From: Dehalococcoidia bacterium | GTDB lineage: Bacteria; Chloroflexota; Dehalococcoidia; Lucifugimonadales; SHYT01 | Direction of reading: 5' to 3' | Length of the DNA stretch: 64,000 nt | Assembly (NCBI GenBank): GCA_009692665.1 | Contig: SHYT01000002.1 | Coordinates: forward strand, 56,606 to 120,605 | In this document: in pieces, positions 2,373 to 61,475 of the stretch | Numbering within the stretch: the stretch's first letter is position 1 | How the letters are laid out: each line of letters starts with the position of its first letter | Position numbers and translations under genes: made by a program | The notes under the pieces: generated by a model | Database searches by the model: none | What the model was told of the DNA's origin: nothing | The model's input: only the letters and a program-made list of their open reading frames with translations

Positions 2373-2532
2373 TACCGAACATAAGGCGATGGCGGATTTC
2401 GGCTGTACTAGCTTCAAGGGACGGCGTTATAATGCATCGATTCTTTTCGGCCGTCTGTCCCGTTTACTACGAACATACGTCGCTGCGTTTGGCGATGGAG
2501 CGGGCGAGCAACCCGCCTGGAGGTGAGGCCCA

Positions 2533-3756
2533 ATGGGATTTGTGAAAGCGCTCCACTGTCGCGAATGCGGCCGCCAGTATCCAGTCGAGGCGGCGAACGC
2601 CTGCGATTTCTGCTTTGGCCCGCTAGAAGTGACGTACGACTACGAGGCGATGGGACGGGTCATTAGCCGTGAGCGGATCCAAAAAGGGCCTCTGAGCATG
2701 TGGCGCTACATTGATCTCCTGCCGGTGGAAGGCACTGAGGTCAACGACCTAAACACCGGCTTTACGCCGTTAGTGAAGTCCAAGCGGCTTGGCCGCTACC
2801 TGGGCCTGAATGAGTTGTACATTAAGAACGATGCGGTCAATCCCTCCTATTCCTTCAAGGACCGTGTTGTGTCTGTGGCATCCACGAAGGCGCTGGAGTT
2901 CGGCTACGATACGCTGGCCTGCGCCTCCACAGGCAACCTAGCAGGCAGCGTTGCCGCCCATGCCGCGCGCGCCGGGATGAAGGCGTTCATCTTTGTTCCC
3001 GCTGACCTGGAACAGGGTAAAATGGTGGGCGCCGCGGTCTACGGGCCAACACTGGTGGCGGTGAAGGGCAACTACGATGAAGTGAACCGCCTTTGCAGCG
3101 AGCTGGCAGACACCTATCACTGGGCGTTTGTGAACATCAACATGCGCCCATACTACGCGGAAGGCAGCAAGACGCTGGGCTACGAGACGGCGGAACAGCT
3201 TGGCTGGCGGGCGCCGGACCATTGCATTGTGCCGTCCGCGTCCGGGTCGCTGTTCACCAAGATATACAAGGGGCTTCACGAGTTTTCCAAATTGGGGCTG
3301 ATTGGCTCCGTGAAGACGCAAATGCACATGGCGCAGGCCCAGGGCTGCGCGCCCATCGCCACCGCATGGATCAACAAGCTGGAGGTAGTGAAACCGGTAC
3401 GGCCCAACACCATCGCCAAGTCGCTGGCCATTGGCAACCCGGCGGACGGCTTCTACGCGCTGAAGGTCATTAAGGACAGTGAGGGCTCCGCAAACATTGT
3501 GCATGAAGACCAGATTGTTGAAGGGATCAAGATGCTTGCCGAGATGGAAGGCATCTTCACCGAGACAGCGGGCGGCGTGACGATCAGCGCGCTGGCGGCG
3601 CTGGCACGGAAGGGCGTCATCAAGAAGGATGATGTAACGGTGGTGTACGTGACGGGCAACGGTCTCAAGACCCAAGAGGCGGTGGTTGACCTGCTGCGTC
3701 CGCTGGTGATTGAGCCAACGGTCACTGCGTTCCAGCAGGCGCTGGGCGGCCGGTAG
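2533..3756 (+). CDS. thrC: threonine synthase family PLP enzyme (ThrC-like, N-terminal zinc ribbon)
   Basis: 407 aa. Has the CRECG...CDFCFGPLEV zinc ribbon of the archaeal-type ThrC subfamily, the PLP-lysine motif NPSYSFKDRVVS and a glycine-rich GSGSL-like loop (SASGSLF). GGAGGTGAGG lies upstream of the ATG. Confidence 0.85.
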   Translation: MGFVKALHCRECGRQYPVEAANACDFCFGPLEVTYDYEAMGRVISRERIQKGPLSMWRYIDLLPVEGTEVNDLNTGFTPLVKSKRLGRYLGLNELYIKNDAVNPSYSFKDRVVSVASTKALEFGYDTLACASTGNLAGSVAAHAARAGMKAFIFVPADLEQGKMVGAAVYGPTLVAVKGNYDEVNRLCSELADTYHWAFVNINMRPYYAEGSKTLGYETAEQLGWRAPDHCIVPSASGSLFTKIYKGLHEFSKLGLIGSVKTQMHMAQAQGCAPIATAWINKLEVVKPVRPNTIAKSLAIGNPADGFYALKVIKDSEGSANIVHEDQIVEGIKMLAEMEGIFTETAGGVTISALAALARKGVIKKDDVTVVYVTGNGLKTQEAVVDLLRPLVIEPTVTAFQQALGGR

Positions 3757-3770
3757 GCGAAGGGGAGATC

Positions 3771-4013
3771 ATGACAAGTAGACGCGTGAAGTTTACGTAC
3801 TCGCCTGCGCTCATTACTGACCCGCTCATTTACGAGCTTAGCCATAAGTTTCCTATTGTTACGAACATTCGCCGCGCAGATGTGCGCGACACGGTGGGCT
3901 GGGTAGTGCTTGAGCTCACGGGTGACGACGCTGCCATTGATAGCGGGCTGGCGTGGGTGCGCTCCAAGGGTGTTCGCATTGACTTGGTCACCGGCGACGT
4001 CGTGGAAGGATAG
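3771..4013 (+). CDS. stand-alone NIL domain protein (80 aa)
   Basis: VKFTYSPALITDPLIYELSHKFPIVTNIRRADV...GWVVLELTGDDAAIDSGLAWVRSKGVRIDLV matches the NIL-domain pattern (F.g....P.i..l...f.v..NIl.a.i....G.l.l.l.G......a..yl...gv.ve). Starts 14 nt after the thrC-like stop. Confidence 0.75.
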   Translation: MTSRRVKFTYSPALITDPLIYELSHKFPIVTNIRRADVRDTVGWVVLELTGDDAAIDSGLAWVRSKGVRIDLVTGDVVEG

Positions 4014-4146
4014 CGTTTTCTGGCTCCCACCATTTTGTCGGTTTTGCCACTCTAGCTGAGGTAGCTAACTTGGCAACGAAGGGGCTGAACCGTACAATGG
4101 GCATTTGAAGAAACCAATGTCCAAAGCATACAGACAGGAGCTTTCC

Positions 4147-4425
4147 ATGAGCGTACTCGTTCGTATCCCAGCGCCGCTCCGCAAAGTGGCTAATGGCAAG
4201 GACCGCACAACGGTCGAGTCGAAGAATCTGTCACAGGCGCTAGTTGAGCTGGATAAGCAGTTCCCCGGAATGAAGGAGCGCATCATGGATGAATCAGGCG
4301 CGCTCCGGCACTTTGTGAACATTTACATCAACGGTGAGGATGTGCGCTTCCTCAAGGGCCTGGAGACAGAGACAAAGACCGGCGACGAAGTCAGCATCGT
4401 CCCCGCCGTAGCCGGCGGACGCTAG
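4147..4425 (+). CDS. MoaD/ThiS-family ubiquitin-like sulfur carrier protein, C-terminus ...VAGGR
   Basis: MSVLVRIPAPLRKVANGKD...HFVNIYINGEDVRFLKGLETETKTGDEVSIVPAVAGGR is the beta-grasp carrier pattern with a near-terminal Gly-Gly. I preferred the ATG at 4147 over 4105 because AGGAG lies 6 nt upstream of it. Confidence 0.75.
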   Translation: MSVLVRIPAPLRKVANGKDRTTVESKNLSQALVELDKQFPGMKERIMDESGALRHFVNIYINGEDVRFLKGLETETKTGDEVSIVPAVAGGR

Positions 4426-4470: not shown

Positions 4471-4504
4471 ACGAGGGGTGGGTAATTCACTCTCTCGTTT
4501 TTTT
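4471..4504 (+). terminator. putative rho-independent terminator after the MoaD-like gene
   Basis: A 7-bp stem (ACGAGGG / CTCTCGT) with a 14-nt loop is followed by a T7 run. Confidence 0.45.
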
Positions 4505-4549: not shown

Positions 4550-5074
4550 TTATCCTTCAGGGCTGTTCTTTGAGTTGCGCTTCGCCTTCCCCAGAACATT
4601 TACTGCACCGACCAGCCTCCTTGTTCGCAGTTCGCAAGGTTGATTTAGAAAAACCTTGTCGAAATTCGTAAGTGCATCTTGCACATAGGTCTGTCGCGAG
4701 GCAACGCACGGTGCGCATGGTAACCGCCGTGTTTCTTTGGTCATAATCTTGTCCGGGCTTCCGGCGATGCCGGAACTCAAGAAGAGGCCGGCAACTGTCT
4801 GCCGTTGGTAAAGCTCCATAAAGAGGCTGGAGAGCTCCTCGATGGTATAGGAGAAGCGTTTTCTCGGCACCCAATGACTGTTTGGGCAATATGCACAGTC
4901 CATCATGCAGAAATCCGTAAACATCACCCGCAGAAGTGCTATGGACTTGCCATTTGGCATAGCCGCTCGGTAGACCCCCGCGGGGAGATTCCGGTTGCGG
5001 GCCTGGACTGGCATGGTAGACGGCTGTATGAACTTTTCTTCGCGGGTGGAGCCGAGCACGTCATCGGTGGCCAT
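4550..5074 (-). pseudogene. radical SAM protein fragment (N-terminal third of the putative DNA modification/repair radical SAM family)
   Basis: The CMMDCAYC (CxxxCxxC) cluster and the following RFSYTIEELSSLFMELYQRQTVAGLFLSSGIAGSPDKIMTKE resemble a roughly 420-aa family (...TN.C..DC.YC.NR...R..f...E......FY.RNYIEGLFLSSGI..sPD.TME). Similarity is lost after that point in every frame, and the convergent MoaD-like gene leaves no room for the rest. Confidence 0.45.
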
Positions 5075-24654: not shown

Positions 24655-24834
24655 GCGGTTCCTTTTTCATGGGGATACCTGCCAGTATACGAACCGCGCA
24701 CATGACCTTGCAACCCAAGCGGAGAAGCGGTATCACTTCAGAACACGGGCTTTCACGTCCATCACCCGCGCCCAAGCTGTCCTGTTAGAATGGGGGCGGT
24801 TACTACCGAGGAAATGGCTCCCTCTCTTCTCATT

Positions 24835-26013
24835 ATGAGGTACGCTGTGCGGCTGACCCACCTGAACCTTTACCGATATCGCAACTTCCAAGAGCTTGCG
24901 CTTGAGCTGCCAGGCGGCTTGGTCATGTTTCACGGCCACAACGGCGCGGGGAAGAGCAACCTGCTGGAGGCGTGCTACCTTCTGGCCACTACGAAGTCCT
25001 ACCGGGCCAGCAACGAAAAGGAGTTGCTCAACTTTGGCGCCATAACCGCTGGCGAAATCCCGTACTCCCGCGTCAGTGGCACATCACTCACTGTGACTGG
25101 CGTGCAGTCCAAGGTGCAGATTGATCTGCTCTGGAAAGAGCCGCAAGGCGCTGACCCCATTGGCCCAACACTGAGCAAGCGTATCCGCATCAACGGTATG
25201 CCGCGCCGCGCCGCTGACGCGCTGGGCATTGTCAGCGCTGTGCTCTTTACCGCGGAAGACATCAATTTGGTTACTGGTGCACCTTCTGAGCGCCGGCGTT
25301 TCATTGATGTGCTGCTCTGCCAGCTTGACCCCGCTTATCTCCGTGCGCTGCAGCAGTACCAACGCGTCATGGTGCAACGCAATCACCTTCTCCGGCAGAT
25401 TCGCGAAGGCGAGGCCCAGCCGGACGAGTTGCAGTTCTGGAACGCGCAACTCATCAGGCATGGCGCCATCATCATGGCAATGCGGCGTGCCACCCTCCGC
25501 GAGGTGAGCACACTTGCCGACCGCTTCTATGAAGAAGTCGCCAGTGGACGCGAGAAGCTACAAGTGGATTACGTCCCTAGCCTGGAATGCGACAGTGACA
25601 ATGCTGCTGAGCTTGAGGCAGCGCTGTCTGAGCGTTTGGAGGCAGTGCGGCGTCAGGAGATTAGTGCGGGCCTGAGCTTGCTCGGCCCACACCGAGACGA
25701 TGTCAGCCTGCTGGTGGCTGGAAGCGCCGCAGGCCTGTTTGGCTCGCGTGGCCAGTCTCGCAGTGTTGCGCTCGCGTTGCGCCTTGCGGAGTCCCGCATT
25801 ATCGCCAGCGCCCGCGGCGAAGAGCCGATTCTATTGCTTGACGATATGCTTTCCGAACTTGACCCGCCACGCCGCCGCCAGGTGCTGGAAGCTGCGTCGC
25901 GGGCGCAGCAAGCCTTGCTCACTACGGCAGACATGGAAGGCGCTCTGGACCCGCGCGTCCGGTCGGCACCGCGCTACCTGGTTGAGGCCGGCAGCGTCAC
26001 CAAGGAACAGTAG
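24835..26013 (+). CDS. recF: DNA replication and repair protein RecF
   Basis: LTHLNLYRYRNF...FHGHNGAGKSNLLEA (Walker A), the signature LSGGQ-like region LFGSRGQSRSVALALRLAE and LLLDDMLSELD (Walker B). The start is ambiguous: ATG 24790, ATG 24835 or GTG 24847. Confidence 0.9.
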   Translation: MRYAVRLTHLNLYRYRNFQELALELPGGLVMFHGHNGAGKSNLLEACYLLATTKSYRASNEKELLNFGAITAGEIPYSRVSGTSLTVTGVQSKVQIDLLWKEPQGADPIGPTLSKRIRINGMPRRAADALGIVSAVLFTAEDINLVTGAPSERRRFIDVLLCQLDPAYLRALQQYQRVMVQRNHLLRQIREGEAQPDELQFWNAQLIRHGAIIMAMRRATLREVSTLADRFYEEVASGREKLQVDYVPSLECDSDNAAELEAALSERLEAVRRQEISAGLSLLGPHRDDVSLLVAGSAAGLFGSRGQSRSVALALRLAESRIIASARGEEPILLLDDMLSELDPPRRRQVLEAASRAQQALLTTADMEGALDPRVRSAPRYLVEAGSVTKEQ

Positions 26014-34698: not shown

Positions 34699-35682
34699 CT
34701 AGCGCTCCGCCTGCAGCCACCGCGCGGCTTCCTTAGCGTGGTACGTCAGGATCAAGTCGGCTCCGGCGCGCTTAATAGAGGTCAGTACCTCAAGGATCGC
34801 GCGTTGCTCATCCAGCCAGCCATTCTTTGCGGCCGCCTTCACCATGCTGTATTCGCCACTCACGTTGTAGGCGACGAGGGGCAAGGGCACGCACTCACGC
34901 ACTTTGGCGATGATATCCAGGTACGACAGCGCGGGCTTCACCATCACGAGGTCGGCGCCTTCTTCTACATCGAGCTCCACCTCTCGGAGGGCCATACGCC
35001 AGTTGGCGGGGTCCATCTGGTAACCACGGCGGTCGCCGAACTGCGGAGCCGACTGCGCAGCGGCCCGGAACGGCCCGTAGAACGCCGACGCATACTTAGC
35101 GGCATACGCCATGATGGGCGTCTCGGTCAGACCGGCGGCGTCCAGCGCCTTGCGGATGGCGGCCACCTGCCCGTCCATCATCGCAGATGGCGCAACGATG
35201 TCCGCGCCCGCCTGCGCCTGGGTGACCGCTGTTCTGGCGAGGAGCTCCAGCGTGGCGTCGTTGTCCACGTTGCCATTGCGGACGATGCCACAATGACCGT
35301 GGTCCGTGTATTCGCAGAGACACGCGTCCGTGATCACCGCAAGCTCCGGCCAGCGTTTCTTGATGGCGCGCACTGCCTCTTGCACTACGCCCTCTTCGGC
35401 GTACGCGCCCGTGCCCTTGGCGTCCTTAAGGGAGGGAATACCGAACAACAGCACCCCTGGGATGCCGAGGCCTACAACCTCAGCAATCTCATCGTGCAGC
35501 CTGTCCAAAGAGACCTGATAGCAGCCGGGCATCGGCTCAATCTCCTCGCGCACGTTCTTGCCGTGCGTCACGAAGAGCGGATACACGAACTGATCAGCGG
35601 AGAGCTTTGTCTCCTGCACCATGCGCCGCACCGCGCCTGACTGACGTAGCCGCCGCATACGAGTTATTGGAAACTGAGCCAT
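34699..35682 (-). CDS. hemB: porphobilinogen synthase (delta-aminolevulinate dehydratase)
   Basis: [20 protein letters not shown] (Zn site), MVKPAL (Schiff-base Lys) and [10 protein letters not shown]. Confidence 0.96.
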
Positions 35683-35690
35683 CGTTCTCC

Positions 35691-37214
35691 CTATTGCCTG
35701 GCCGGGGCTGACCCGACATACTCTATTATCGCGCGCACTAATCCTGGTACCGTGTGCTCCTGCGCTTCAACGTCCACGTGCAGCCCCAACTCGCGCGCCG
35801 TTGCTGATGTGATTGGTCCAATGCTGGCGATGAGCACGCCATCCAGTTTCTTCACGTCGCCATCCAACAACCGCACCAGATTTTTCACCGTTGAGGAACT
35901 GGTGAACGTGGCGGCGTCTATGCCGTCTTTAAGAATGCTGTTCGCCTGTGCTCGGGCAGAGCTCGGCATGCGCGTTTCATAGACGGCCACGTCGTCCACC
36001 TGCACCCCAATTGCCCGCAATCCTCTGGACAGCACGTCCCGGCTTTCCAGAGCACGCGGTACCAACACTGTATCGCCGGAAGAGACATGCCCTCGCAAGG
36101 CTTGCAATGCATCCTCAGAAACGAATTCGTTTGGCAGCAGGTCTGCGAGGACACCGCGCTCCCGCAGCGCTACCGCCGTGGCAGTGCCGATGGCGCACAC
36201 GCGGGCCGCACCAAACGCTCTCACGTCTTTTTTGAGGATGGCGAGGCGTTTGAAGAAGATCTCCACGCTATTCGTGCTCGTGAATACCACCCACTGGTAG
36301 CCGCCAAGATGGGCAAGTGCTGCATCCAGCGGTTTTGTGTCGCTGGTGGGAACAACTTCAATGGTTGAGAGATGGATGGGTTGCGCACCTTCTGCGGCGA
36401 GCAGTTCACTCATGCTGCTGGCCTGGTCCCGCGTGCGCGTCACCAGCACACTCGTGCCAAAGAGCGGCCTTCGTTCAAACCACGCCAGCCGCTCCCGTAG
36501 TGACACTACGTCTCCCACCACCATGAGCACCGGCGCCGACAGCTTTGCAGCATCGGCTTTGCGGGCAATAGTATTGAGAGTTCCTGTGACCACTTGCTGT
36601 CTGGAAGTAGTGCCCCAGTGCACCAGCGCGACCGGCGTGTCCGCTTTGCGGCCGGCGGCAATTATGGCGTGCATAATGCCGTCAAGATTTGCGAGGCCCA
36701 TGAGCACAACAAGAGTATCGGCAGCATTTGCGAGCCGTTGCCAGTCAATGCTTACGGCTTCTTTGGCAGGGTCTTGGCTCCCGGTGACGAACGCGACGGA
36801 TGACGCGACGCCGCGATGGGTGACAGGGATGCCTGCATACGCAGGCGCAGCGATGGCGGAGGTCACGCCGGGCACAACCTCAAAGGCCACGCCTGCCTTA
36901 GCCAGGGCCTCCGCCTCTTCGCCGCCGCGTCCGAAGACAAACGGGTCGCCGCCTTTAAGCCGGATGACCTGCTTGCCGGCCTGCCCTTTTTCCACGAGCA
37001 GCGCGTTGATTCCCTCTTGGCTCATCACGCGCAGCCCACGGCCCTTGCCCGCATCAATCAGCTCCGCACCGTCACGCGCGTGTTCCAGTAATCGGGTATC
37101 CATGAGCCGGTCATATACCACCACGTCCGCGCGCTTCAGCAGTTCCAGCCCACGCACAGTGAGAAGCCCTGGATCACCAGGCCCGGCCCCCACCAGGAAC
37201 ACGCGCCCACTCAC
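35691..37214 (-). CDS. cobA/hemD: fused uroporphyrinogen-III C-methyltransferase / uroporphyrinogen-III synthase
   Basis: 507 aa. The N-terminus [18 protein letters not shown]...VVYDRL...[16 protein letters not shown] is SUMT. The C-terminal half from [13 protein letters not shown] is HemD-like. Confidence 0.92.
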
Positions 37215-38134
37215 GCCGCACCTTCACGCAGCAAGTCATCCGCACCAGCCGCGCGAAGCATTTGCAGCAATCGCTCTCCGGCGGCGCCTGCCTGCTCAAC
37301 AGAAGCAGTAACCAACTGGCGATAGACCCGTTTGCCGTCAGTGGACGCGACCAGTCCGCGGACACGCACGGTGCTGCCCTGGACTGTTGCATATGCGGCT
37401 ATGGGCGTCTTGCAGCCTGCACCCGCTGCCCGCAGAAACGCGCGCTCCGCTTGTGTCGCAATGCATGTTGGTTCATGGTCCAACAGTTTCAGTAAGGCCA
37501 GCGTTTCCACATCGTCCACGCGCGCTTCCACGCCCAACACCCCTTGTGAGATCGCAGGCACCAAGGTATCGGGGTCCAGAAACTCGGTGATGTGCCGTTC
37601 CAGCCCAAGACGGATGAGACCAGCGGCGGCTAGCACTACGGCGTCGTACTCGCTGGCCAGGAGCTTCCGCACGCGCGTGTCCACATTGCCACGAATATTC
37701 TGTGTATCCACGTCCGGCCTGAGTTCTTTCACAAGCGCGGTCCGCCGCGGACTGCTGGTGCCAATAACAGCGCCCGCCTGCAATTGCCCAAGGCTGCGAC
37801 CATCCTTGCTGACGATGACATCGCGCGCATCTGCCCGTTCCGGCACGGCGGCTAGCACAAGTCCGGCAGGTAACTGCCCCGGCAAGTCCTTCAGGCTATG
37901 CACAGCGAGGTCAACGTCATGAGCCAGCAGGGCGTTCTCGATTTCCCGGCTGAATGCGCCACGGCCTAGCTCTTCAAGAGGCGCCTGCGTGACGACATCG
38001 CCTTTGGTCTTGATGGTCTTGATGTGGAACTCGCGGGTGGGATCCAGCAGTCGCAACGCACTGACCACGATGCCGGTTTGTATAAGCGCCAGCTTGCTCC
38101 CGCGAGTGCCTATCACCAGTGCGCGAGCAGCCAT
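37211..38134 (-). CDS. hemC: hydroxymethylbilane synthase (porphobilinogen deaminase)
   Basis: IGTRGSKLALIQT, TKGD, AVHSLKDLP, RGNVDTR and a C-terminal cofactor Cys (GAGCKTPIAA). Confidence 0.96.
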   Translation of the reverse strand: MAARALVIGTRGSKLALIQTGIVVSALRLLDPTREFHIKTIKTKGDVVTQAPLEELGRGAFSREIENALLAHDVDLAVHSLKDLPGQLPAGLVLAAVPERADARDVIVSKDGRSLGQLQAGAVIGTSSPRRTALVKELRPDVDTQNIRGNVDTRVRKLLASEYDAVVLAAAGLIRLGLERHITEFLDPDTLVPAISQGVLGVEARVDDVETLALLKLLDHEPTCIATQAERAFLRAAGAGCKTPIAAYATVQGSTVRVRGLVASTDGKRVYRQLVTASVEQAGAAGERLLQMLRAAGADDLLREGAA

Positions 38135-38136
38135 TG

Positions 38137-39426
38137 CTAGTCCTTGTCCTGAAGATGATGGCCTCTCGCCTGGCCTGGGGCATCCACAGGAAGCTGAAAC
38201 AGCTCCCGGAACAGCTTGAGCTGCTCCTGGTTGCCGCTGGACTTGATTGTGGTGATGGGCGCGTGGAGCAGCTTCTGCACCAGTGCGCGGCTCATGTCCT
38301 CAAGCACCACCTGCTGCTCCGGGCTCAACTCTTGCAGCCTGCGCAAAGCCCGCGCAAATTCACGCTGGCGCACTGCTTCTGCCTGTTGCTGGAGCGATGC
38401 CACGGCAGGCTGAATAGCCAGGCCGTCCCACCACGTTTGGAACTGCGCCACTTCTTCTTCGACAATGCCTTCCGCACGCGCCGATTCCTCGTCCTGTTCG
38501 TGGCGATGCAGCGCAGCAATCTCGTTGAAGTCATCCAGGTCAAACAGCGATACGTAGGGCAGCGTCCGCACGTCGGGGTCAACGTCACGTGGTATCGCAA
38601 TATCCATGAGCACCAGCGGTTTCTGAGAGATGCGTATAGCCTCAAGAAGTCCCCGGGTAATGACCGTTCCCGGCGACTCTGTAGCGCTCACCACCACGTC
38701 GGCATCCGCCAGCAAGGCGTGCAGCGATTCAAACGGCTCGGCCCCTGTAGCCCCTACCTCTGCCACAAGATCCTGCGCGCGCTGGAACGTGCGGTTCGTG
38801 ATGACCAGGGATTCGAGCTTGGCTTGCGAAAGTGCTCGCGCGGCCAACTTCCCGGCCTGTCCCGCGCCAATCACAACAGCACGCTTGCCGGCAAGATTGC
38901 CCAGCGTTTGGCGCGCCAGATGGATGCACGCCGCGCTGATAGAAAGCCCGTTCCGGCTGAGGCGCGTTTCTGTGTGGACCCGTTTGCCAACGCGCAATGC
39001 TTGATGGAACATCTTCCCCAGCGGATCGTGCACGGTTCCCGCCAGCGTGGCTGCGCTGAACGCCGAACGCACCTGGCCCAGCACCTGCGTCTCGCCGACC
39101 AGTAGCGAGTCCAGGCCGCTTGCCACGCGGAACAGGTGCCGCACGGCATCAGGCCCTTCATAGCGGTAGAAGTACCGCTCAATGGACCCCGCGCCGAGCG
39201 GGTACAGTTGTTCCAGGAACGCCATCCATGCATCCCGCTGCCCAGCGGACGCGTCAGCCATTGTGTAAAACTCTGTACGGTTGCACGTGGAGACGATGAC
39301 AGCGTGGCCGAACGGCTTCGCCAGCGCCTCTAGCGCACTCGGCAACCGTTCTGCAGACACGCTGAGCCGCTCACGCACTTCAAGCGGCGCCGTGCGATGG
39401 CTTATGCCAAGAATGATAGGCTTCAC
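38137..39426 (-). CDS. hemA: glutamyl-tRNA reductase
   Basis: ILGISHRTAPLEVRE, STCNRTEFY (catalytic Cys), LLVGETQVLGQV and an NADPH site VIGAGQAGK. Confidence 0.96.
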   Translation of the reverse strand: MKPIILGISHRTAPLEVRERLSVSAERLPSALEALAKPFGHAVIVSTCNRTEFYTMADASAGQRDAWMAFLEQLYPLGAGSIERYFYRYEGPDAVRHLFRVASGLDSLLVGETQVLGQVRSAFSAATLAGTVHDPLGKMFHQALRVGKRVHTETRLSRNGLSISAACIHLARQTLGNLAGKRAVVIGAGQAGKLAARALSQAKLESLVITNRTFQRAQDLVAEVGATGAEPFESLHALLADADVVVSATESPGTVITRGLLEAIRISQKPLVLMDIAIPRDVDPDVRTLPYVSLFDLDDFNEIAALHRHEQDEESARAEGIVEEEVAQFQTWWDGLAIQPAVASLQQQAEAVRQREFARALRRLQELSPEQQVVLEDMSRALVQKLLHAPITTIKSSGNQEQLKLFRELFQLPVDAPGQARGHHLQDKD

Positions 39427-40100
39427 GAATGCTTCACTCCCGCAGGCTGTGCGCCCGCCTCAAGTCGAGCCGTGAGCACCTTGCGAGCCTCTGCTCTCTT
39501 TCCTTGCCGGACCATCTCCAGCACATCGGTGGTCATGCACGCCTGCCAATGGTCTGACGCGACAATGACGCCCCGACTACGCAGGTCGCCGCGCACCTCG
39601 CCAAGCATCTCTCCTGCGTCTGCCCACGCAATGCAACAGGCCGTGCCGCGCTGCAGGCTTTTGTCCAAGTCTTCGCGAAGCCGTCGCGCCAATGCAGGGC
39701 TCAGCCCCCCCGTTGAGACAGCCACAGTGACCGGCCCCCGGTGCACTACCGCTGGCGCAATCCAGTTGCAGAGATGCGGAACGTCCATGACATTCAAGAG
39801 GCAATTGCGGTGCTCAGCTTCGTGGTTCACTGCCTCGTTCACAGCAGGGTTCGACGTGTCTGCCACAATGGCCATGAAGGCACCCTGCAGGTCTCCGCGC
39901 CGGTAATGGCGCTTGTGCCACGTGATTTTCCCGCTTGTCGCCAGTTGTTGCAGGTGTTCCGTAAGACCTAGACTCACGATCTCAATGCGCGCACCGCAGG
40001 CTAGCATTGGGCCAATCTTGCCTTCGGCCGCAGCGTCGCCGCCAATGACCACACACTTTCGATTCCTCAGGTCTAAGAACACGGGATAAAAATCAGCCAC
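39423..40100 (-). CDS. sirC: precorrin-2 dehydrogenase / sirohydrochlorin ferrochelatase (SirC / CysG N-domain / Met8-like)
   Basis: FYPVFLDLRNRKCVVIGGDAAAEGKIGPMLACGARIEIVS (Rossmann), 225 aa, overlapping the hemA start by 4 nt. Confidence 0.85.
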   Translation of the reverse strand: MADFYPVFLDLRNRKCVVIGGDAAAEGKIGPMLACGARIEIVSLGLTEHLQQLATSGKITWHKRHYRRGDLQGAFMAIVADTSNPAVNEAVNHEAEHRNCLLNVMDVPHLCNWIAPAVVHRGPVTVAVSTGGLSPALARRLREDLDKSLQRGTACCIAWADAGEMLGEVRGDLRSRGVIVASDHWQACMTTDVLEMVRQGKRAEARKVLTARLEAGAQPAGVKHS

Positions 40101-40126
40101 ATCTCACCTCGTTGAGCCTGCGCCGG

Positions 40127-41107
40127 TTAGACAAAGTACCGCACGCGTGTCTTTTTGTACTCGCGCGTGCTAAACAGCAACATGTAGTCGCTGACCCCGC
40201 ACTCTTGCGACATCTCCTTTGCAATTTCCTCGCACTTCTCTTGGGTCGTAGCGTGGATCATCGCAAAGTGGCTGTAGGGCCAGTCCGGATACGTGGGGCG
40301 CTCATAGCAGTGCGTAACCCACTTGGATTTCGCCAGCGCACGTCCCACCTCTGCCGAATTGGCGGTCTCCGGCACGCGCCACACGGACATGGCATTAAAC
40401 TTGAACCCCGCACGACGGTGGTGCAGCACTGCACTGAACCGGCGCATCAACCCACGCTGCTGCAATCCGTTCGCAATGTCGAAGAGTTCCCGGTTCGTTA
40501 GGTGTAACCGCTGTGCTATGACATCAAACGGGCGGCTCTCCAGCGCAATGTCCTCTTGCAGCTCCAGCACCGCCTCAACGTCAAACGGCGTGACCTTCTC
40601 CGCTCTGTTCCAGTTAGGGTTGTCCGGGTCGTAGGAAACCGCGGCGCCCTCTTCTTTCACCATGTCAAAGTTCACGCCAATCTTGAAGAAGCGGATGACC
40701 GGCAGCAGACGACACTCCAGAGCTTCTGTGCGCTGCGCCATTTCCTTGATTGTGCCTTCCAGGCTCTCCATTGGCGGCACTGCCAGCGTGAACCATAGGT
40801 TGAAGTAGTGCCCCTCGCGAGCGTAGTTGTGGGACACACCCGGATGACGGTTGATAAGTAGCGCCGATTTGTGCAGCCTTTCCGGGTCAAAAGCCATCGC
40901 CACCAAGCACGTCGTATAGCCCAGCCTGCGAGTGTCAAAGATAGCGCTGATCTGGCGCACCACATGCTTGCGCTTCAACTCACCAATGCGGCGCAGCACA
41001 CCCTCCTCAGTAAGCCCAAGCTCGTCACCTATGGCCTTGAACGGCTCATCTGTCAGTGGGAACCGCGTTTGGATGACGTTCAGAATGCGCCGGTCGTCAA
41101 GGTCCAT
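40127..41107 (-). CDS. ahbAB: fused siroheme decarboxylase AhbA/AhbB (NirD/NirL-like, tandem Lrp/AsnC-type modules)
   Basis: Two tandem modules: LDDRRILNVIQTRFPLTDEPFKAIGDELGLTEEGVLRRIGELKRKHVVRQISAIFD...HPGVSHNY and TPFDVEAVLELQEDIALESRPFDVIAQRLHLTNRELFDIANGLQQRGLMRRFSAVL...WVTHCYERP. The start is ambiguous: ATG 41107 (MDLDDRRIL) avoids the overlap, while the ORF opens at 41224. Confidence 0.75.
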   Translation of the reverse strand: MDLDDRRILNVIQTRFPLTDEPFKAIGDELGLTEEGVLRRIGELKRKHVVRQISAIFDTRRLGYTTCLVAMAFDPERLHKSALLINRHPGVSHNYAREGHYFNLWFTLAVPPMESLEGTIKEMAQRTEALECRLLPVIRFFKIGVNFDMVKEEGAAVSYDPDNPNWNRAEKVTPFDVEAVLELQEDIALESRPFDVIAQRLHLTNRELFDIANGLQQRGLMRRFSAVLHHRRAGFKFNAMSVWRVPETANSAEVGRALAKSKWVTHCYERPTYPDWPYSHFAMIHATTQEKCEEIAKEMSQECGVSDYMLLFSTREYKKTRVRYFV

Positions 41108-41156
41108 GTCGCTGGCGTCACGCTTGGGGGCGCTGCGCTTAGAAGCAGCCGCTGGC

Positions 41157-41837
41157 TCAGACTGCGCCGGCGGCTTGGATTGCGCTTTGCGTATCATTGC
41201 CCGCACCATTGTGGCTCCCTTCATAGGACCGGATCATGGACAGCAACATATGGTCCGCCACCTGCTCCATCTGCTCCCAGATGAGAGTGGTGTCAGTCCC
41301 ACGGAGTGAGCCGTGTTGGGCAGCTTCTCGCACGGCCTCAAAGAGCGAGTTCCGGAAGAAGATGAATGCTTCGAGCACCTGTCCAAGCGGCACGCCCACA
41401 CGCGCAATGTCCTGGCCATACCCCTCGGCAAGTACACCAACTTCTGATAGCACGTCTGCCTGCCCCCGGCGCTGGCTGACATAGGTAATGCTCAAATCAA
41501 GCAACCGCCTGCCAAGCACGCGCATCTTGACGCGCCCCTCTTCACTAAGCTTCCCCATCCACGCCTGCTTGCGCGGGGAGTGCTCGCCGTGCAGGCCTTT
41601 GCGTATCCTGCGCAGCGCGGACTCTTCAAGAGTGGCCACCGCTATTTGGACCGGCCTGCGCCCCTGCGTCATGGCGACAAGGTCTTCCCGCAGGAACCGG
41701 CGATGGCCGCCCGCAGTGCGGAACGTGCGGATCTGTCCATTATCGGCCCACTGGCGGAGGGTAGATTGATGCACCTTCATCAAGGCGCACGCCTCGGAGA
41801 GAGGCAGCCACTGCGTTTGAAGCTGCGAAGATGCCAT
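41157..41837 (-). CDS. DNA-binding regulator: excisionase/MerR-type HTH plus C-terminal helical sensor-like domain
   Basis: The N-terminus WLPLSEACALMKVHQSTLRQWADNGQIRTFRTAGGHRRFLREDL is the HTH_17/excisionase-family motif. The C-terminal roughly 150 aa are all-helical (..LGRRLLDLSITYV...GYGQDIARVGVPLGQVLEAFIFFRNSLFEAV..), reminiscent of RsbR-N/globin-coupled-sensor-type modules. First gene of the heme cluster. Confidence 0.65.
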   Translation of the reverse strand: MASSQLQTQWLPLSEACALMKVHQSTLRQWADNGQIRTFRTAGGHRRFLREDLVAMTQGRRPVQIAVATLEESALRRIRKGLHGEHSPRKQAWMGKLSEEGRVKMRVLGRRLLDLSITYVSQRRGQADVLSEVGVLAEGYGQDIARVGVPLGQVLEAFIFFRNSLFEAVREAAQHGSLRGTDTTLIWEQMEQVADHMLLSMIRSYEGSHNGAGNDTQSAIQAAGAV

Positions 41838-49120: not shown

Positions 49121-49993
49121 CTAGGCGTTTTTGGGCTTGCGCATGATGAATACACTTGCCAGAGCGATCACCGCCGCCACGATGGCGACGACGAGGGCAA
49201 TGACGGCCAAACCGCTTGCAGCATCCTGACCGGCAGGACCCGCAGCGCCAATAGCCCCAGCTTTTCCGTCAGCGCCAGCTTTGCCAGCAGCGCCTGCGAC
49301 ACCGGCAATACCGGCAGGACCAGCTGTACCTGCAGGACCTACGGCGCCCTGAGCGCCAGCAGCACCGCTAGCGCCCGCACCAATGGTGTAGGTGGTGGTC
49401 GCGGTACGGCCAGCGTTGTCAGCAGCCGTGATGACGTACGCGCCAGCAGCGCTGCTCGGCAGCACCGCGACGGCGCTAAAGGAGCCGTTAGGCGCAACTG
49501 TCACCACGTTCGTGGTGGCCGCTGGGCCACCGGGCACCGTGAGGGTCACCGGAGAGCCCGCGCTGAACCTGCTGCCGGAGACCACCACCACGTTACCCGG
49601 GCCGGTGGTCGGGGCAACAGTCGCAGTAGCCGCGGCCGCGGGACCACTGTTTGCATTCAGATCCTTTCGCTCGTTGTTGAACGCGGTGAATTGTGCTGAC
49701 TGGGTCGCACTAAAGGTACCGATCGTAAACTTAATGGTCTTACCGGTCAACTGCCCCGCAACGGTCTCCACTATCATGAGGATATAGTCGCCCGTGGCAT
49801 CCGTGTTTGCCGAAGCGACTTCCATTCCATCAACAGTAGCGGCAACCTTCGTATTGGCTGATGCAGCCACTCCGTCTATCCGGGCCTTCCCATAGAACCC
49901 ATGTGGGCTCGTGGATTGCGCCGAGACGAAAGCCGGCACCAACGCCAAGGACAGAGCCAGCACTGTGGCCAGCAGGATCCTTAGATTGGACAT
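49121..49993 (-). CDS. membrane-anchored surface protein: signal peptide, Ig-like domain, collagen-like Gly-X-Y stalk, C-terminal TM anchor
   Basis: Signal peptide MSNLRILLATVLALSLALVPAFVSA|Q. An IPT/Ig-like segment (GNVVVVSGSRFSAGSPVTLTV...NGSFSAVAVLP). 17 uninterrupted G-X-Y triplets (GAS GAA GAQ GAV GPA GTA GPA GIA GVA GAA GKA GAD GKA GAI GAA GPA GQD, nt 49223-49375). A TM helix LAVIALVVAIVAAVIALASVFI and a basic tail MRKPKNA. Confidence 0.8.
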   Translation of the reverse strand: MSNLRILLATVLALSLALVPAFVSAQSTSPHGFYGKARIDGVAASANTKVAATVDGMEVASANTDATGDYILMIVETVAGQLTGKTIKFTIGTFSATQSAQFTAFNNERKDLNANSGPAAAATATVAPTTGPGNVVVVSGSRFSAGSPVTLTVPGGPAATTNVVTVAPNGSFSAVAVLPSSAAGAYVITAADNAGRTATTTYTIGAGASGAAGAQGAVGPAGTAGPAGIAGVAGAAGKAGADGKAGAIGAAGPAGQDAASGLAVIALVVAIVAAVIALASVFIMRKPKNA

Positions 49994-50072: not shown

Positions 50073-52871
50073 TTAGCGCCAGCCGAGGATATTGTTGCCC
50101 TTTGTCAGCGTGCGTGTGAAGGTGCTCGTCGTCAGCGTGCAGTCGGCATCGACTACGATGTTTACTGCGTCGCCGGGGACGATGCTGAGTAGCGTGTTGG
50201 CGGCGGAAGGGGCGGCTATGTCATAGAGCAGCCATGCCTTCTTTCCGTTGTCATATCCCCACACGCGGGTAACGCTAGCTGCGATCGACTGAACCTGAGA
50301 CGCCACGGTTTGGGTCGCGACGGAGATAGTGAGGGAGGTCGTGGCGGCGAATAAGCCCGCGGTGGCATTCACAGCTACGACGCCCGTGTTCATGGCAGGA
50401 ACAATTATGGTGATATTGAATTGGCCGTTCGCGTCGGTGTTCAGCGCCTGGGCAGGCAGCACACCAAGGCCGCCAACCGTCAGCACGTCCACGCCTACGA
50501 ACTGCGGGAATCCGTCACCACGGATAGTCAGGTTGCCGCCAACGGTCGAGGTCGCGGCCGTGCCCACACCGGTGGCAGATACGGTCGGCGCGGGGATGAA
50601 GTGGGTCACAGCGGTTAAGTTGGTGCCTAACGAGACCGCGTCCGTAGCGGTGATCGTGTTCAACGAGTTCGGATTAGCGGCCAGCGGGACCGTCACGTTG
50701 ACGGTGAAGTTACCGCTGCCGTCCGTTGTGGCGGCCCCAATGACGTTGGTCGCAGAAGTGGGGATGGGGTAGTTGAGCGTTACTGTGCTAGCACGGCTCC
50801 AGCCTGTGCCGGTGAGGGTTATGATGGTGCCGCGCTTTCCAGACGTCGGGGTCGCCGTCATCAGACGGGACGGAATGGTAACGGACGTCTGGCCGTTCAG
50901 ACCCGCTGCGTCGGTAACGATCACCGTCAATGTGCCGGTGGTCGTGCCCAGACCAGGAGATGCTACGCCCGTGCCTATTTCAAAGACCGCCGCTGGGAAG
51001 TTCCCTGCGGCATCCAAGGTCCAGTTTCCGCCGGTTGGGCAACCGCCTCGCGGGGTCCAGGCCAGAGAGTTAATCGTCACACCGGCCGGGCAAGCAACGG
51101 TGCTGCTCGCCGAAAGACCGGTTGCTGTGAGGGTCACCGGGCTGCCAGGAGTGCCCACCACACCCGTATTGGGCGTGATAAGGATAGTGGCGCCATACAA
51201 CGTTACCGTAGCAGTTGCACCGGCAGCCGTTGAGCTTGCGGTCGTCCACACCCGGATGGTGGCCACGCCCGCAGGTACACCCAGCGGCACTGTGCAGGTA
51301 GCAGTTGCGGTCAACTGGCCAGCCGCGTTCGCATTGACTGCGCTGGATGGACCGCAGTTTCTGCCACCAATCGAGATGCCCTCAGCAGCCGTCCCAGCGA
51401 CGGGGCCGACAATGCTTGCGTTTGCTGCGAAGTCGTCACCGCTGATCGTGAAGACGGAGCCTACGACACCCGTGGCCGAGCTCAGCCGGATGCTTGCGAG
51501 AACCGTGAAGCCGGTCTTTGGGAAGTTCGCACCAGGGAGGCCAGCGTTGTCCATGACTTTGATGTTTGCGTTGGCCCCGGTAGCCAGCGGTGGGACCGTG
51601 GCGATCCAGGCAATGGATGCCTTGCCGTCCGTGCCAACCGTGCCCGTGCCAAGGACAATTTCAGCCGCGGTCACCGCGTTATCGTCGTTGGCGTCGTTCC
51701 ACAGGGTAGCCGAGGAGCCGGAGGTGAGACCTGCAGCTGTGGAGGTCACGCTCGTGCCACGTGCGCCAGACGTCGCGCTGTGGCTCAGTGTGCGCACGAA
51801 CATCACGCGCGCCTGGTTGTTTATGGCGACTTGGAGCCCGTTGCTGGACAGGATGGAGCCGCCGCTGGCCGTGCCGCTGGCAATGGCACCAGCAGGGCCG
51901 CCGCTTGCGGAGTTCTTGATGAGCGCAGACTGGCCAATGGTGACCATCACCAGGGACGCCGCACCAGGAGTTTGCGCGGCAATGTTTGTTATTGCGACGC
52001 CGGCCGGCGTCAGGTTCGGCAGCGTTATTTGAATGTTACGTGTGTTCGCTGAGCCACCAATGATCAGTGAGCCTCCCACGATTGGGTCGATGTTCAGCGG
52101 GTTAGATGCACCGCCATTCACCGAAACCGCCACCATACTTTTCGATATCGTGGCCGGGAGTACAACACCCAATGGCATAGCGAGAATCATCGTGTCCACA
52201 CCAGAGACCAGGATCGTTCGCGCTGGGAACGTGATGTTCCACTGAGCGAACTGGTCCACCGTGTTGGGGTTCACCACGAAGGCTGTTGCAAAGACCAGGG
52301 GGAGTTCGGAGCTAACGAGTGGATGGGTTACAGGCGTCGTAGCCTGAACCGAAACCACGGCCGGTATGTAGTTTTGTGCCCCGCCTTGTGAAGCCGTGCC
52401 GTCCGCAGGATGGACGTTTGCGGCAGCTATAAACTGGAGCGCGACGTAGGCGCCAGCGCCCGGGGCCATTACCGCTGACACATGGGTCAGTACTTGGCCC
52501 GAAATGGTTAACGAGGCTGTGTTAGCGGCTGCTAGGGCGGTGACGGCAGCGGCGACGTTTGCGCCGGTCCCTGCGTACACGTTAGCGGCTATTACAGTGC
52601 TCGCTGGCATTACTGTGCCATTCGGCAGAGTGTAAGCAACTGACTGCCCTGCGTTGTAACCAGTGCTAGTGACAAACACTATTGTCACTACTGATGCGGA
52701 TGGCTGACCAAGTGCCGCACCGGGATTTACCGTGTCAGTGGTCACAGTGACCGCTGTAATCACGCCAGCCGCGTGTGCGCTCTGTGGGCGCACTGCGAAT
52801 GGCGCAATGACGCTAACGAGCAGCGCGAGCGTCAAAAGCCAGGAGAATACCTTGGTAACTTGCTTAGTCAT
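50073..52871 (-). CDS. large secreted Ala/Thr/Gly/Val-rich surface protein with repeated Ig/IPT-like modules (S-layer candidate)
   Basis: 932 aa. Signal peptide MTKQVTKVFSWLLTLALLVSVIAPFAVRPQSAHA|AG. Very few charged residues. Repeated ...G[ST]xxT[IL][ST]G.GF/W......V.......T.D..G.F...[IV].VP modules. No LPXTG, SLH or TM anchor that I recognise. AAAGGAGG lies before the ATG. Confidence 0.8.
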   Translation of the reverse strand: MTKQVTKVFSWLLTLALLVSVIAPFAVRPQSAHAAGVITAVTVTTDTVNPGAALGQPSASVVTIVFVTSTGYNAGQSVAYTLPNGTVMPASTVIAANVYAGTGANVAAAVTALAAANTASLTISGQVLTHVSAVMAPGAGAYVALQFIAAANVHPADGTASQGGAQNYIPAVVSVQATTPVTHPLVSSELPLVFATAFVVNPNTVDQFAQWNITFPARTILVSGVDTMILAMPLGVVLPATISKSMVAVSVNGGASNPLNIDPIVGGSLIIGGSANTRNIQITLPNLTPAGVAITNIAAQTPGAASLVMVTIGQSALIKNSASGGPAGAIASGTASGGSILSSNGLQVAINNQARVMFVRTLSHSATSGARGTSVTSTAAGLTSGSSATLWNDANDDNAVTAAEIVLGTGTVGTDGKASIAWIATVPPLATGANANIKVMDNAGLPGANFPKTGFTVLASIRLSSATGVVGSVFTISGDDFAANASIVGPVAGTAAEGISIGGRNCGPSSAVNANAAGQLTATATCTVPLGVPAGVATIRVWTTASSTAAGATATVTLYGATILITPNTGVVGTPGSPVTLTATGLSASSTVACPAGVTINSLAWTPRGGCPTGGNWTLDAAGNFPAAVFEIGTGVASPGLGTTTGTLTVIVTDAAGLNGQTSVTIPSRLMTATPTSGKRGTIITLTGTGWSRASTVTLNYPIPTSATNVIGAATTDGSGNFTVNVTVPLAANPNSLNTITATDAVSLGTNLTAVTHFIPAPTVSATGVGTAATSTVGGNLTIRGDGFPQFVGVDVLTVGGLGVLPAQALNTDANGQFNITIIVPAMNTGVVAVNATAGLFAATTSLTISVATQTVASQVQSIAASVTRVWGYDNGKKAWLLYDIAAPSAANTLLSIVPGDAVNIVVDADCTLTTSTFTRTLTKGNNILGWR

Positions 52872-53746: not shown

Positions 53747-53774
53747 ATAAGGGTTTCCTGTGAGACAACGCGAG

Positions 53775-54007
53775 GAACGGGAAGAGTACCCACCCACTCC
53801 AGCATCAGAGAGCCGGCGGATGGTGCGAGCCGGTTGCGGACGGCGGGGAACTGGCCCGGGAGCGGAGAGGGTGAATTCGCCAGAGGCGGACTAGCCATCT
53901 ACGGTGACACCGTTACCGTCTTGAGCGTCCCCTGATATCGGGGGAAATGGTGGTGGTACCGCGGGGTGCATATCCCGTCCGCCTTGTGTGGCGAACGGGA
54001 TTTTTTG
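53775..54007 (+). promoter_or_regulatory. T-box riboswitch leader (specifier CUG, Leu) with terminator, upstream of ilvB
   Basis: Stem I elements: GAAGAGTA (specifier-loop 5-prime side), CAGAGAGCC and GGTGCGAGCC. The specifier-loop 3-prime side is GGGGAA CTG G (CTG at 53851-53853), closed by CGGG/CCCG. The T-box sequence is AAATGGTGGTGGTACCGCGGGG (53945-53966). The terminator is CCCGTCCGCC ttgtgt GGCGAACGGG + TTTTTTG (53973-54007), whose 5-prime arm can alternatively pair with the T-box. Confidence 0.8.
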
Positions 54008-55872: not shown

Positions 55873-55877
55873 CAGGA

Positions 55878-56456
55878 ATGGAAGCAGATCGCGTTCACAC
55901 CATCGTTGCGCTATTGCGAGATCGCCCCGGCGTGCTTAACCGCGTCGCCAGCGTCATCCGCCGCCGCGGCTTCAACATCTCCAGCCTTACCGTTGGCAAC
56001 TGCGAAACGGAAGGCCTCTCCCGCATGACCTTTGTGGTGCAGGGCGATGATAACATCGCTGACCAGGTGACCAAGCAGCTCCGCAAGCTCATGGACGTTG
56101 TGCGCATTGCGGACATCAGCTATGAGAGTTTCATCTCCCGCGAGATGGCGCTCATCAAGGTGCGCGCCAATCCCGCTACGCGTGGCGAAATCATGCAGAT
56201 CGTGGACATCTTCCGCGCCAACATCGTGGATGTCTCACCGGAAGCGCTGGTCATTGAAGTAACCGGCGATGAGGACAAGGTGGCCTCCCTCCTCGGCATG
56301 GTCAACCACTTTGGCGTGTGCGAGGTGCAGCGCAGCGGCCGCCTCTCCATGGTGCGCGGCATGATTGGCGCGGGCGATTCCACCGCCGTCGTCACCAGGT
56401 CTCCCAACGGGCACATCCCGGAAGTCGCTGTCGAAGTGGACCGCTCCGGGGGCTAG
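55878..56456 (+). CDS. ilvN: acetolactate synthase small (regulatory) subunit
   Basis: ACT domain HTIVALLRDRPGVLNRVASVIRRRGFNISSLTVG...SRMT. Confidence 0.93.
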   Translation: MEADRVHTIVALLRDRPGVLNRVASVIRRRGFNISSLTVGNCETEGLSRMTFVVQGDDNIADQVTKQLRKLMDVVRIADISYESFISREMALIKVRANPATRGEIMQIVDIFRANIVDVSPEALVIEVTGDEDKVASLLGMVNHFGVCEVQRSGRLSMVRGMIGAGDSTAVVTRSPNGHIPEVAVEVDRSGG

Positions 56457-56506
56457 GTCCCACGCATAACGAAAGTACGCGCAGTATGCGCCGATAAGGA
56501 AACGAA

Positions 56507-59295: not shown

Positions 59296-59343
59296 AACGC
59301 TCTCGCCATGACGGCAAGAGAGCTGGCAAGAGAGGGAGCAAGC

Positions 59344-61451: not shown

Positions 61452-61475
61452 CGGCGGTATCCAAGTAGGACTAAA

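Follow-up and report, generated by a model that had tools for sequence, protein, structure and literature searches.

Is the gene named 'threonine synthase' by both NCBI and JGI in a Dehalococcoidia bacterium a threonine synthase at all, given that the two small genes behind it encode a NIL-domain protein and a sulfur carrier? We addressed this question for a 64,000-nucleotide (nt) stretch of contig SHYT01000002.1 (GCA_009692665.1; hereafter the window), in which three open reading frames (ORF1, ORF2 and ORF3; Table 1) lie closely spaced on one shared (+) strand. A preliminary description had read them as three co-oriented, tightly spaced genes for a ThrC-family pyridoxal phosphate (PLP) enzyme with an SFKDR motif and an N-terminal zinc ribbon, an 80-amino-acid (aa) NIL protein and a 92-aa beta-grasp carrier capped by VAGGR, and had suggested that together they form a sulfur-carrier-dependent homocysteine module. 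All three ORFs were present as described, and profile matches to Pfam and NCBIfam/TIGRFAM models, judged against stated cut-offs, bore out each gene call (PALP, PF00291, 1.4e-65, with K109 and four invariant cysteines; NIL, PF09383, 1.1e-13, in a stand-alone ORF; ThiS, PF02597, 5.7e-15, in a protein ending VPAVAGGR). The suggestion itself is supported by clade membership, carrier synteny, S-adenosylmethionine (SAM) riboswitches, second thrC genes and the published MetM/MetO pathway. Taking all parts together, we consider it moderately probable that the module is a MetM/MetO-type homocysteine operon in which the NIL protein serves as methionine-sensing subunit.

ORF1 and the carrier-linked clade of ThrC homologues

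A comparable route is known from Streptomyces albulus, where, according to the summary in GapMind 2026 citing Hasebe 2024, MetM and the thiocarboxylated sulfur carrier MetO turn O-phosphohomoserine into homocysteine, with Mec acting in MetO maturation and MoeZ in sulfur loading; the same summary in GapMind 2026 describes MetM as a ThrC homologue that is 'often misannotated' as threonine synthase. PMC12172450 places a SAM riboswitch upstream of S. albulus metM. In Microcystis, the carrier-linked 'ThrC' shares 51.6% identity with S. albulus MetM and has a neighbour 47% identical to MetO, and cyanobacteria keep a separate canonical ThrC2 beside the carrier-linked ThrC (PMC12172450). The window resembles the S. 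albulus system of MetM, MetO, Mec and MoeZ in combining a ThrC-homologous PLP enzyme with a ThiS/MoaD-type carrier, in the misannotation as threonine synthase, in a carrier whose C-terminus is predicted here to need maturation, and in the SAM riboswitches that control orthologous operons. It differs in that a stand-alone NIL gene separates the enzyme gene from the carrier gene, that a SAM riboswitch is absent and neither Mec nor MoeZ is encoded nearby, and that its lineage is Chloroflexota. The pathway is known; what is new here is the Chloroflexota member and its conserved NIL partner.

ORF1 is a fold-type II PLP enzyme. In a neighbour-joining distance tree of 43 sequences, which carries no support values, it grouped with 28 carrier-linked homologues, including that of a Microcystis locus (L077) with the same gene pair and 59% identity. 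The solved ThrCs (2zsj, 6cgq, 1uim and 2d1f) formed a second clade together with the second ThrCs (~365 aa) of five loci, in each of which a canonical ThrC is encoded beside the MetM-like gene (L029, L057, L058, L076 and L083), indicating that genomes with a MetM-like enzyme also keep thrC. The nearest actinobacterial proxies (P0247 and P0473, both Micromonosporaceae) were ~50% identical to ORF1. The phylogenetic placement that the preliminary description had left to be made thus sets the enzyme with the carrier-linked clade and apart from the solved ThrCs.

The two clades share the fold, the PLP-lysine motif, T. thermophilus (Thermus thermophilus, Tth) residue N154 in our alignment and, probably, O-phosphohomoserine as substrate. 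They differ at the N-terminus, where C9, C12, C24 and C27 of the zinc ribbon are invariant (alignment A1 of 15 homologues, 41–71% identical) and the whole segment is absent from 9/9 canonical ThrCs, including the four solved ones, whose alignments begin at about query residue 56. They also differ around the active site: Tth T88, S155, N157 and R160 are kept in 9/9 canonical ThrCs and give way to L, N, R and Y in 29/29 members of the MetM-like clade (L136, N203, R205 and Y208 in ORF1). Outside the zinc ribbon, 32 columns discriminate the MetM-like clade from ThrC. We take T88, S155 and R160 to be the phosphate-binding site that steers water addition, a role that a literature search did not confirm, and the swaps T88L, S155N, N157R and R160Y (Tth numbering) are candidates for what makes the enzyme favour gamma-replacement over beta-addition on one and the same substrate. 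Linkage to a carrier and to SAM riboswitches further sets the MetM-like clade apart from the canonical enzymes.

We assessed linkage in a scan that took a single genome from each species and was queried with an alignment of diverse ORF1 homologues. It yielded 80 named loci at 55–71% identity, 79 of them analysable; the ORFs of each locus were translated and searched with the three window proteins by single-sequence phmmer with domain coordinates. The loci came from Chloroflexota, Nitrospirota, Cyanobacteria, Actinomycetota, Planctomycetia, Nitrospinota, Aquificaceae, Methylomirabilota, Verrucomicrobiia and others, such that the MetM-like clade spans at least eight phyla. A ThiS-like gene adjoined the MetM-like gene in 69/79 named genomes and a NIL gene was found in 35/79 loci, in the order enzyme-NIL-carrier (M-N-O) or enzyme-carrier-NIL (M-O-N). 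The order of the window prevailed in Chloroflexota (17 loci, plus two that lack the carrier), enzyme-carrier-NIL was found in 11/11 Nitrospirota loci, and enzyme and carrier alone were present in 22/23 loci of Cyanobacteria and in most actinobacterial MetM-MetO pairs. On other contigs the trio of PALP, NIL and ThiS genes stood between unlike flanks, with HSP20/DnaJ upstream and TGT/TauE downstream; because it recurs with unrelated flanking genes and in 17 Chloroflexota genomes, the arrangement is not due to chance. Other neighbours included JAMM (Prok-JAB) genes in 13 loci and genes for ThiF-type activating enzymes (E1) in ~20, and beyond the enzyme, NIL and carrier no further gene was widely conserved around the module in these loci, biosynthetic-cluster genes included.

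A SAM riboswitch (RF00162; 56–91 bits, in every case exceeding the gathering score) immediately preceded the MetM-like gene in 13 loci: Micromonospora (L003), three other Actinomycetota, one Verrucomicrobiia metagenome-assembled genome (MAG) and eight Chloroflexota. Three of these loci (L020, L027 and L044) are M-N-O trios in the same order as in the window. Control by a SAM riboswitch marks a methionine operon, not a threonine operon; as a regulatory trait, the riboswitch differs from member to member of the clade. Taken together, the sequence comparisons make a MetM/MetO assignment of the module highly likely, and ORF1 has probably been misnamed as a 'threonine synthase'.

Several observations on related loci and proteins stand beside these results. 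In a Nitrospiraceae locus (L030, 6054–11148) the genes for CysK, ThiF, MetM, MetO, NIL, ThiF and JAB are contiguous, and both there and in a Dehalococcoidia MAG (L010, 3454–10300) the module stands beside extra ThiS-like, ThiF E1, CysK/CysM-like PALP and JAMM genes, where carrier systems for cysteine and homocysteine may share one locus. An Anaerolineae MAG (L068, 5418–5517, +) gave an Rfam match to PYLIS_3 (pyrrolysine insertion sequence, mttB) that barely exceeds the gathering score (42.6 vs 38 bits) and may be spurious. Outside the clade, distant ThrC-like proteins at 36–39% identity (P0347, P0358 and P0382 with 611–619 aa; P0344, P0356, P0357 and P0364 with 489–499 aa) carry a C-terminal LeuA_dimer (LeuA allosteric) or PadR winged-helix domain. 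By analogy only, ThrC-family enzymes appear to have repeatedly acquired small regulatory domains.

The carrier and its NIL neighbour

Besides its ThiS match, ORF3 scored 67 bits with NF041918 (SAMP1), and its best solved relatives were Mycobacterium tuberculosis CysO (3dwg_C, 1.3e-17) and 4n6e_B; the alignments with 3dwg_C and with the ThiS/MoaD protein of 4n6e run end to end up to ..AVAGG. By these matches ORF3 is the predicted MetO-type carrier that the published pathway needs. The preliminary description had regarded the MoaD-like gene and the GG-R tail as the parts still in need of explanation, a view that changes on both counts. The MoaD-like gene is accounted for because published MetO is itself a ThiS/MoaD-like sulfur carrier, and the NIL gene becomes the unexplained extra. 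The tail is one of many variable extensions: some homologues have nothing behind the GG, and others add R, V, F, Q, N, H, SA, LL, LR or CF, or longer tails such as GHD, TSCRM and TGEAAD, among others. Not being conserved, the residues after GG are presumably removed, as they must be for the Gly-Gly to be adenylated and as in the tailed carriers HcyS (GG-A) and QbsE (GG-CF), and R92 is not anomalous because the published pathway has the Mec hydrolase for MetO maturation.

Two other protein-thiocarboxylate systems place the window in context. The CysO-CysM-Mec+ system of M. tuberculosis is similar in its fold-type II PLP enzyme, its O-phospho-amino acid substrate, its protein thiocarboxylate and the release of its product by a JAMM hydrolase, all of which are predicted here for the window. 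It differs in using a CysM-family enzyme and O-phosphoserine, as opposed to a ThrC-family enzyme and, by prediction, O-phosphohomoserine, and in a carrier that ends in Gly-Gly with no tail. We know of no NIL partner in the CysO-CysM-Mec+ system. The HcyS-HcyF-HcyD-MetY system of Wolinella succinogenes, which Krishnamoorthy and Begley are said to have described in 2011, reportedly forms homocysteine from a protein thiocarboxylate; its HcyS is reportedly made as GG-A, with the extra residue cut off by a JAMM protease, and its enzyme, said to be an O-acetylhomoserine sulfhydrylase of fold type I, takes O-acetylhomoserine as substrate, reportedly with no NIL protein involved. The likeness to the window thus lies in homocysteine formation via a protein thiocarboxylate and in a one-residue carrier tail, and the difference in enzyme fold and substrate.

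ORF2 matched the NIL family with 51.3 bits (cut-off 24) and TIGR02314 MetN with 15.7 bits (cut-off 499.7), and is not the tail of a MetN ABC ATPase. Stand-alone NIL proteins of ~80 aa form a tight family (57–79% identical). NCBI names ORF2 'FeS-binding protein', and 'ABC-type methionine transport ATPase subunit' is also in use for the NIL gene. ORF2 contains no cysteine at all, there is no invariant cysteine among 51 homologues, and no ferredoxin Pfam domain matched ORF2; with no cysteine conserved, the NCBI name is wrong, and a role as Fe-S or persulfide protein was rejected. The AlphaFold2 model of ORF2 (predicted local distance difference test, pLDDT, 89) had as its best PDB match the C2 domain of MetN (3tuz_H; TM-score 0.82, root-mean-square deviation 1.1 Å), a chain from a selenomethionine-soaked MetNI crystal, followed by the ACT domains of PGDH, SerB and RelA. 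In MetN this NIL (C2) domain binds methionine and mediates trans-inhibition of MetNI. ORF2 shares Pfam family and fold with MetN C2 and differs from it in being a free 80-aa protein with only ~18–24% identity in the structural alignment.

A second precedent is the NIL-ferredoxin MA1822, a subunit of L-aspartate-semialdehyde sulfurtransferase (L-ASST) in the DUF39 homocysteine pathway; its NIL domain is stated to bind methionine and regulate L-ASST, and methionine feedback has been proposed (PMC12068725). The likeness is that NIL is attached to a homocysteine-forming system; ORF2 differs in having neither a ferredoxin domain nor conserved cysteines, and the partner enzyme and chemistry are different as well. 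By analogy only, the ACT subunits of AHAS (IlvN/IlvH) and the C-terminus of IlvA are likewise small ferredoxin-like ligand modules that give end-product feedback, and IlvA is also a fold-type II PLP enzyme; NIL is a Pfam family distinct from ACT. The accessible literature, which did not include the primary MetM/MetO paper, contained no description of a NIL protein in the MetM/MetO route.

A scan of metagenome contigs centred on NIL gave 77 assessable loci, the other three beginning at the NIL gene. A MetM-like gene lay directly upstream of NIL in all 77, which together with the genome counts for carrier and NIL bears out the co-conservation on which the preliminary description had made its proposal depend. 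Downstream of NIL, a ThiS-like gene was found in 37 loci, and ~34 had a NifS-type cysteine desulfurase gene and no ThiS-like gene within 4 kb. Many of the latter continue with a gene of the AIR-synthase family (HypE/ThiL/SelD-like), and the gene content suggests a different sulfur delivery to the same enzyme-NIL pair. Given that NIL follows MetM in all 77 of these loci while the sulfur-delivery genes vary, NIL tracks the enzyme. A methionine-sensing regulatory role for the NIL protein is plausible, though we hold it at slightly below an even chance.

Within this set, locus L091 (4001–6505) encodes a MetM-like protein, NIL, NifS (TIGR03402, 595 bits) and an AIR-synthase-family protein below the HypE, ThiL and SelD cut-offs, and the MetM-NIL-NifS layout was also seen in L100, L101, L102, L107, L108, L114, L119 and ~25 more metagenome loci. 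The C-terminal hexapeptide of NIL, GD[VIL][VIL]EG (3996–4013 in the window, residues 75–80), is nearly invariant in the Chloroflexota-type family, and the model shows its last four residues (77–80) as disordered (pLDDT <50). The Nitrospirota proteins finish in ..NVVE with no terminal glycine, which makes a carrier-like function of the C-terminal glycine unlikely.

Proposed mechanism and competing readings

In the mechanism that we propose, ORF3 would be made with R92 after its Gly-Gly, and a JAMM/Mec-type peptidase would cut R92 off; a ThiF/MoeB/MoeZ-type E1 would then adenylate the bared Gly-Gly and convert it to the thiocarboxylate. Both the peptidase and the E1 must lie outside the window because neither was found in its 64 kb. 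ORF1 would bind O-phosphohomoserine on PLP, eliminate phosphate and let the carrier thiocarboxylate attack C-gamma, where a threonine synthase would instead add water at C-beta, and hydrolysis of the carrier-homocysteine adduct would free homocysteine. The NIL protein would perform no sulfur chemistry; co-made with MetM as a small ACT-like ligand-binding subunit, it would most likely sense methionine or a close relative, as MetN C2 does, and lower flux through the module. The data themselves show the fold, the gene content, the synteny, the gene fusions, the riboswitch linkage and the clade to which ORF1 belongs; substrate and product, the trimming of the tail and both ligand and target of NIL are inferred from these.

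Several observations weigh against this mechanism. ORF1 passes the TIGR00260 thrC model (282 bits, cut-off 167), its link to the characterised S. albulus MetM is indirect, running via the Microcystis protein, and a Microcystis member of the clade showed threonine synthase and deaminase activity in vitro and did not raise methionine (PMC12172450). Comparing the 5' leader of the operon with Rfam gave nothing, either at the gathering threshold or at E<=1. Among the 36 other window ORFs surveyed there was no E1, JAMM, rhodanese, thrB, second thrC or met gene, and neither a methionine-synthase nor a homoserine kinase gene lies within the 64-kb window, which leaves the homocysteine pathway incomplete as seen. 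For the NIL protein in particular, natural fusions join it to the carrier, not to MetM; only one weak MetM column (T262) tells loci with NIL from loci lacking it; and NIL is found together with SAM riboswitches and therefore does not simply replace them (a substitution that was rejected because three M-N-O trios have both and the association lacks significance; Fisher p = 0.21).

The fusions lead to an alternative in which the module is of the MetM/MetO type and NIL is a stoichiometric adaptor of the carrier cycle, not a feedback sensor, for example holding the carrier or its homocysteine adduct for JAMM or E1, or chaperoning maturation. NIL is appended to the C-terminus of the carrier in two MAGs, one from Planctomycetia (L034, 6334–6906) and one from Syntrophaceae (L035, 9288–9803), where one ORF runs from the carrier (...AIAGG) through a linker into NIL, and it directly follows a fusion of carrier and ThiF E1 in an Actinomycetota MAG (L079, 9235–10302). 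Because NIL is fused after Gly-Gly, proteolytic release is implied, as with ubiquitin precursors. Nitrospirota NIL genes also sit between the carrier and ThiF-JAB genes, and carrier tails were commoner in loci with NIL both overall (24/33 vs 3/36 without; Fisher 3e-8, kinship ignored) and within Chloroflexota (12/17 vs 1/7; p = 0.02, kinship ignored). In the metagenome sample, however, tails go with NIL less strongly (12/36 carriers, again with kinship ignored), and an adaptor of the carrier cycle fits poorly with the ~34 MetM-NIL-NifS loci that have no ThiS-like gene within 4 kb, with the NIL-less pairs of Cyanobacteria and most Actinomycetota, and with the spacing in the window, where NIL begins 14 nt after the ORF1 stop yet ends 133 nt before the carrier gene. 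We regard the adaptor, though the chief alternative for the NIL protein, as unlikely. A bolder version strikes us as improbable: ubiquitin-like sulfur-carrier pathways would have in NIL a third, hitherto unrecognised member, gated by methionine and serving as switch or adaptor in JAMM maturation, E1 activation or hand-over to MetM. It would have originated, and in some lineages would still be made, as a cleavable C-terminal carrier extension like ubiquitin fusion precursors. At its extreme, NIL would replace the carrier in sulfur delivery at the ThiS-less MetM-NIL-NifS-AIRS-like loci.

The remaining readings deny the module its homocysteine product. ORF1 could be a bifunctional threonine synthase and threonine deaminase to which carrier and NIL are not homocysteine partners, in line with the TIGR00260 score and with the Microcystis enzyme, which combined threonine synthase with threonine-to-ketobutyrate activity (PMC12172450). 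That enzyme nevertheless shares 51.6% of its residues with S. albulus MetM, has a co-induced MetO-like neighbour and coexists with a separate ThrC2 (PMC12172450), and a threonine role would leave unexplained the SAM riboswitches on 13 orthologous operons, the near-universal carrier synteny and the replaced ThrC residues; we judge this reading very unlikely. It is still harder to believe that the module makes another sulfur compound, be it cysteine from O-phosphoserine in the manner of CysM/CysO, a thio-cofactor or a natural-product intermediate. The closest solved relatives of the carrier, M. tuberculosis CysO and the CysO in 4n6e, which we take to be a complex from a 2-thiosugar pathway, would fit such a product, as would the CysK-like genes near the module in Nitrospirota and in L010; against this, the PLP enzyme belongs to the ThrC family (CysM models reach 36 bits vs 282 for thrC), the SAM riboswitches point to methionine, and no biosynthetic-cluster genes are conserved around the module. 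Scarcely tenable, finally, is the view that ORF1 is a housekeeping threonine synthase with two coincidental small neighbours. The NCBI and JGI annotations, the TIGR00260 match, the matches to solved ThrCs (1e-46 to 1e-55) and a window with no other thrC speak for it, but the trio recurs beside differing flanking genes, ORF1 belongs to a separate clade whose members have a canonical ThrC next to them in five loci, and ORF1 falls just below the cut-off of NF006050, its best NCBIfam model by E-value (301.4 bits, cut-off 303). The annotation is explained by the curated NCBI thrC model being blind to the clade difference, as the MetM-like protein of L030 also passes it at 294 bits and a canonical ThrC at 306 bits.

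Window features and consequences for methionine metabolism

The features of the operon are collected in Table 1. Each of the three ORFs has a Shine-Dalgarno-like motif 5' of it. An alternative TTG start at 4105 would extend ORF3 to 106 aa; homologues begin at the MSV.. position. The predicted folding of the leader was not better than that of shuffled sequence (z = +1.1).

Table 1 Coordinates of the operon features in the window
Feature	Position	Strand	Description
5' leader of operon	2373..2532	+	stretch before ORF1, riboswitch-negative
ORF1	2533..3756	+	407 aa; MetM-type ThrC-family PLP enzyme, predicted thiocarboxylate-dependent homocysteine synthase on O-phosphohomoserine
Zinc-ribbon motif C9-x2-C12 ... 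C24-x2-C27	2557..2613	+	N-terminal, four cysteines
PLP-binding lysine K109 codon	2857..2859	+	SFKDR = residues 107-111; aligns with T. thermophilus ThrC K61
ORF2	3771..4013	+	80 aa; stand-alone NIL-domain protein, predicted methionine-sensing regulatory partner of MetM
Promoter-like site TTGGCA-17-TACAAT	4070..4098	+	NIL-carrier spacer; 10/12 consensus positions; consensus match only
ORF3	4147..4425	+	92 aa from ATG; MetO/CysO-type ThiS-family sulfur carrier (predicted), GG + R92
Carrier C-terminus codons G90-G91-R92	4414..4422	+	ORF3 ends VPAVAGGR
Terminator-like hairpin + T-run	4475..4503	+	3' of carrier gene; pattern match only, two found vs 2.2 expected by chance

A 174-aa ORF (4550–5074, −) abuts the carrier gene and covers only positions 38–121 of the 415-position model TIGR03916 for a putative DNA modification/repair radical SAM protein; by its look it is a truncated gene remnant, possibly marking a rearrangement boundary. 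Another 407-aa ORF (24790–26013) was considered as a thrC paralogue and ruled out as an SMC/AAA protein. Elsewhere, a T-box leader (RF00230, 117 bits; 53764–53985, +) lies 5' of ilvB-ilvN-ilvC-leuA-leuC-leuD-leuB (54157–63508), which puts branched-chain amino-acid synthesis in the window under tRNA-sensing control; the homocysteine operon has no RNA switch. A cluster at 34699–41224 (−) encodes HemB, a CobA/HemD fusion, HemC, HemA, a siroheme-synthase-like NAD-binding protein and a NirD/L-like siroheme decarboxylase, a content that suggests a siroheme-dependent (alternative) haem pathway. A 931-aa ORF (50073–52871, −) had no Pfam match at E<=1e-4, and its neighbour (49121–49993, −) encodes a 289-aa protein with collagen triple-helix repeats.

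Members of the ORF1 clade are called 'threonine synthase' in Chloroflexota, Nitrospirota, Cyanobacteria, Actinomycetota and other phyla, and as a consequence of the misnaming of MetM and NIL, metabolic reconstructions would overlook the homocysteine step and wrongly infer methionine auxotrophy. Aquifex and Acidimicrobium have been listed as lacking any known homocysteine route (Price et al. 2018); MetM-like genes occur in MAGs assigned to Aquificaceae (L036) and Acidimicrobiia (L052 and L080). If the proposed role is correct, the NIL protein that travels with MetM would equip a protein-thiocarboxylate pathway with control at the protein level or with a new accessory step, and the NIL-MetM pairing offers a simple, testable handle on NIL function outside ABC transporters.

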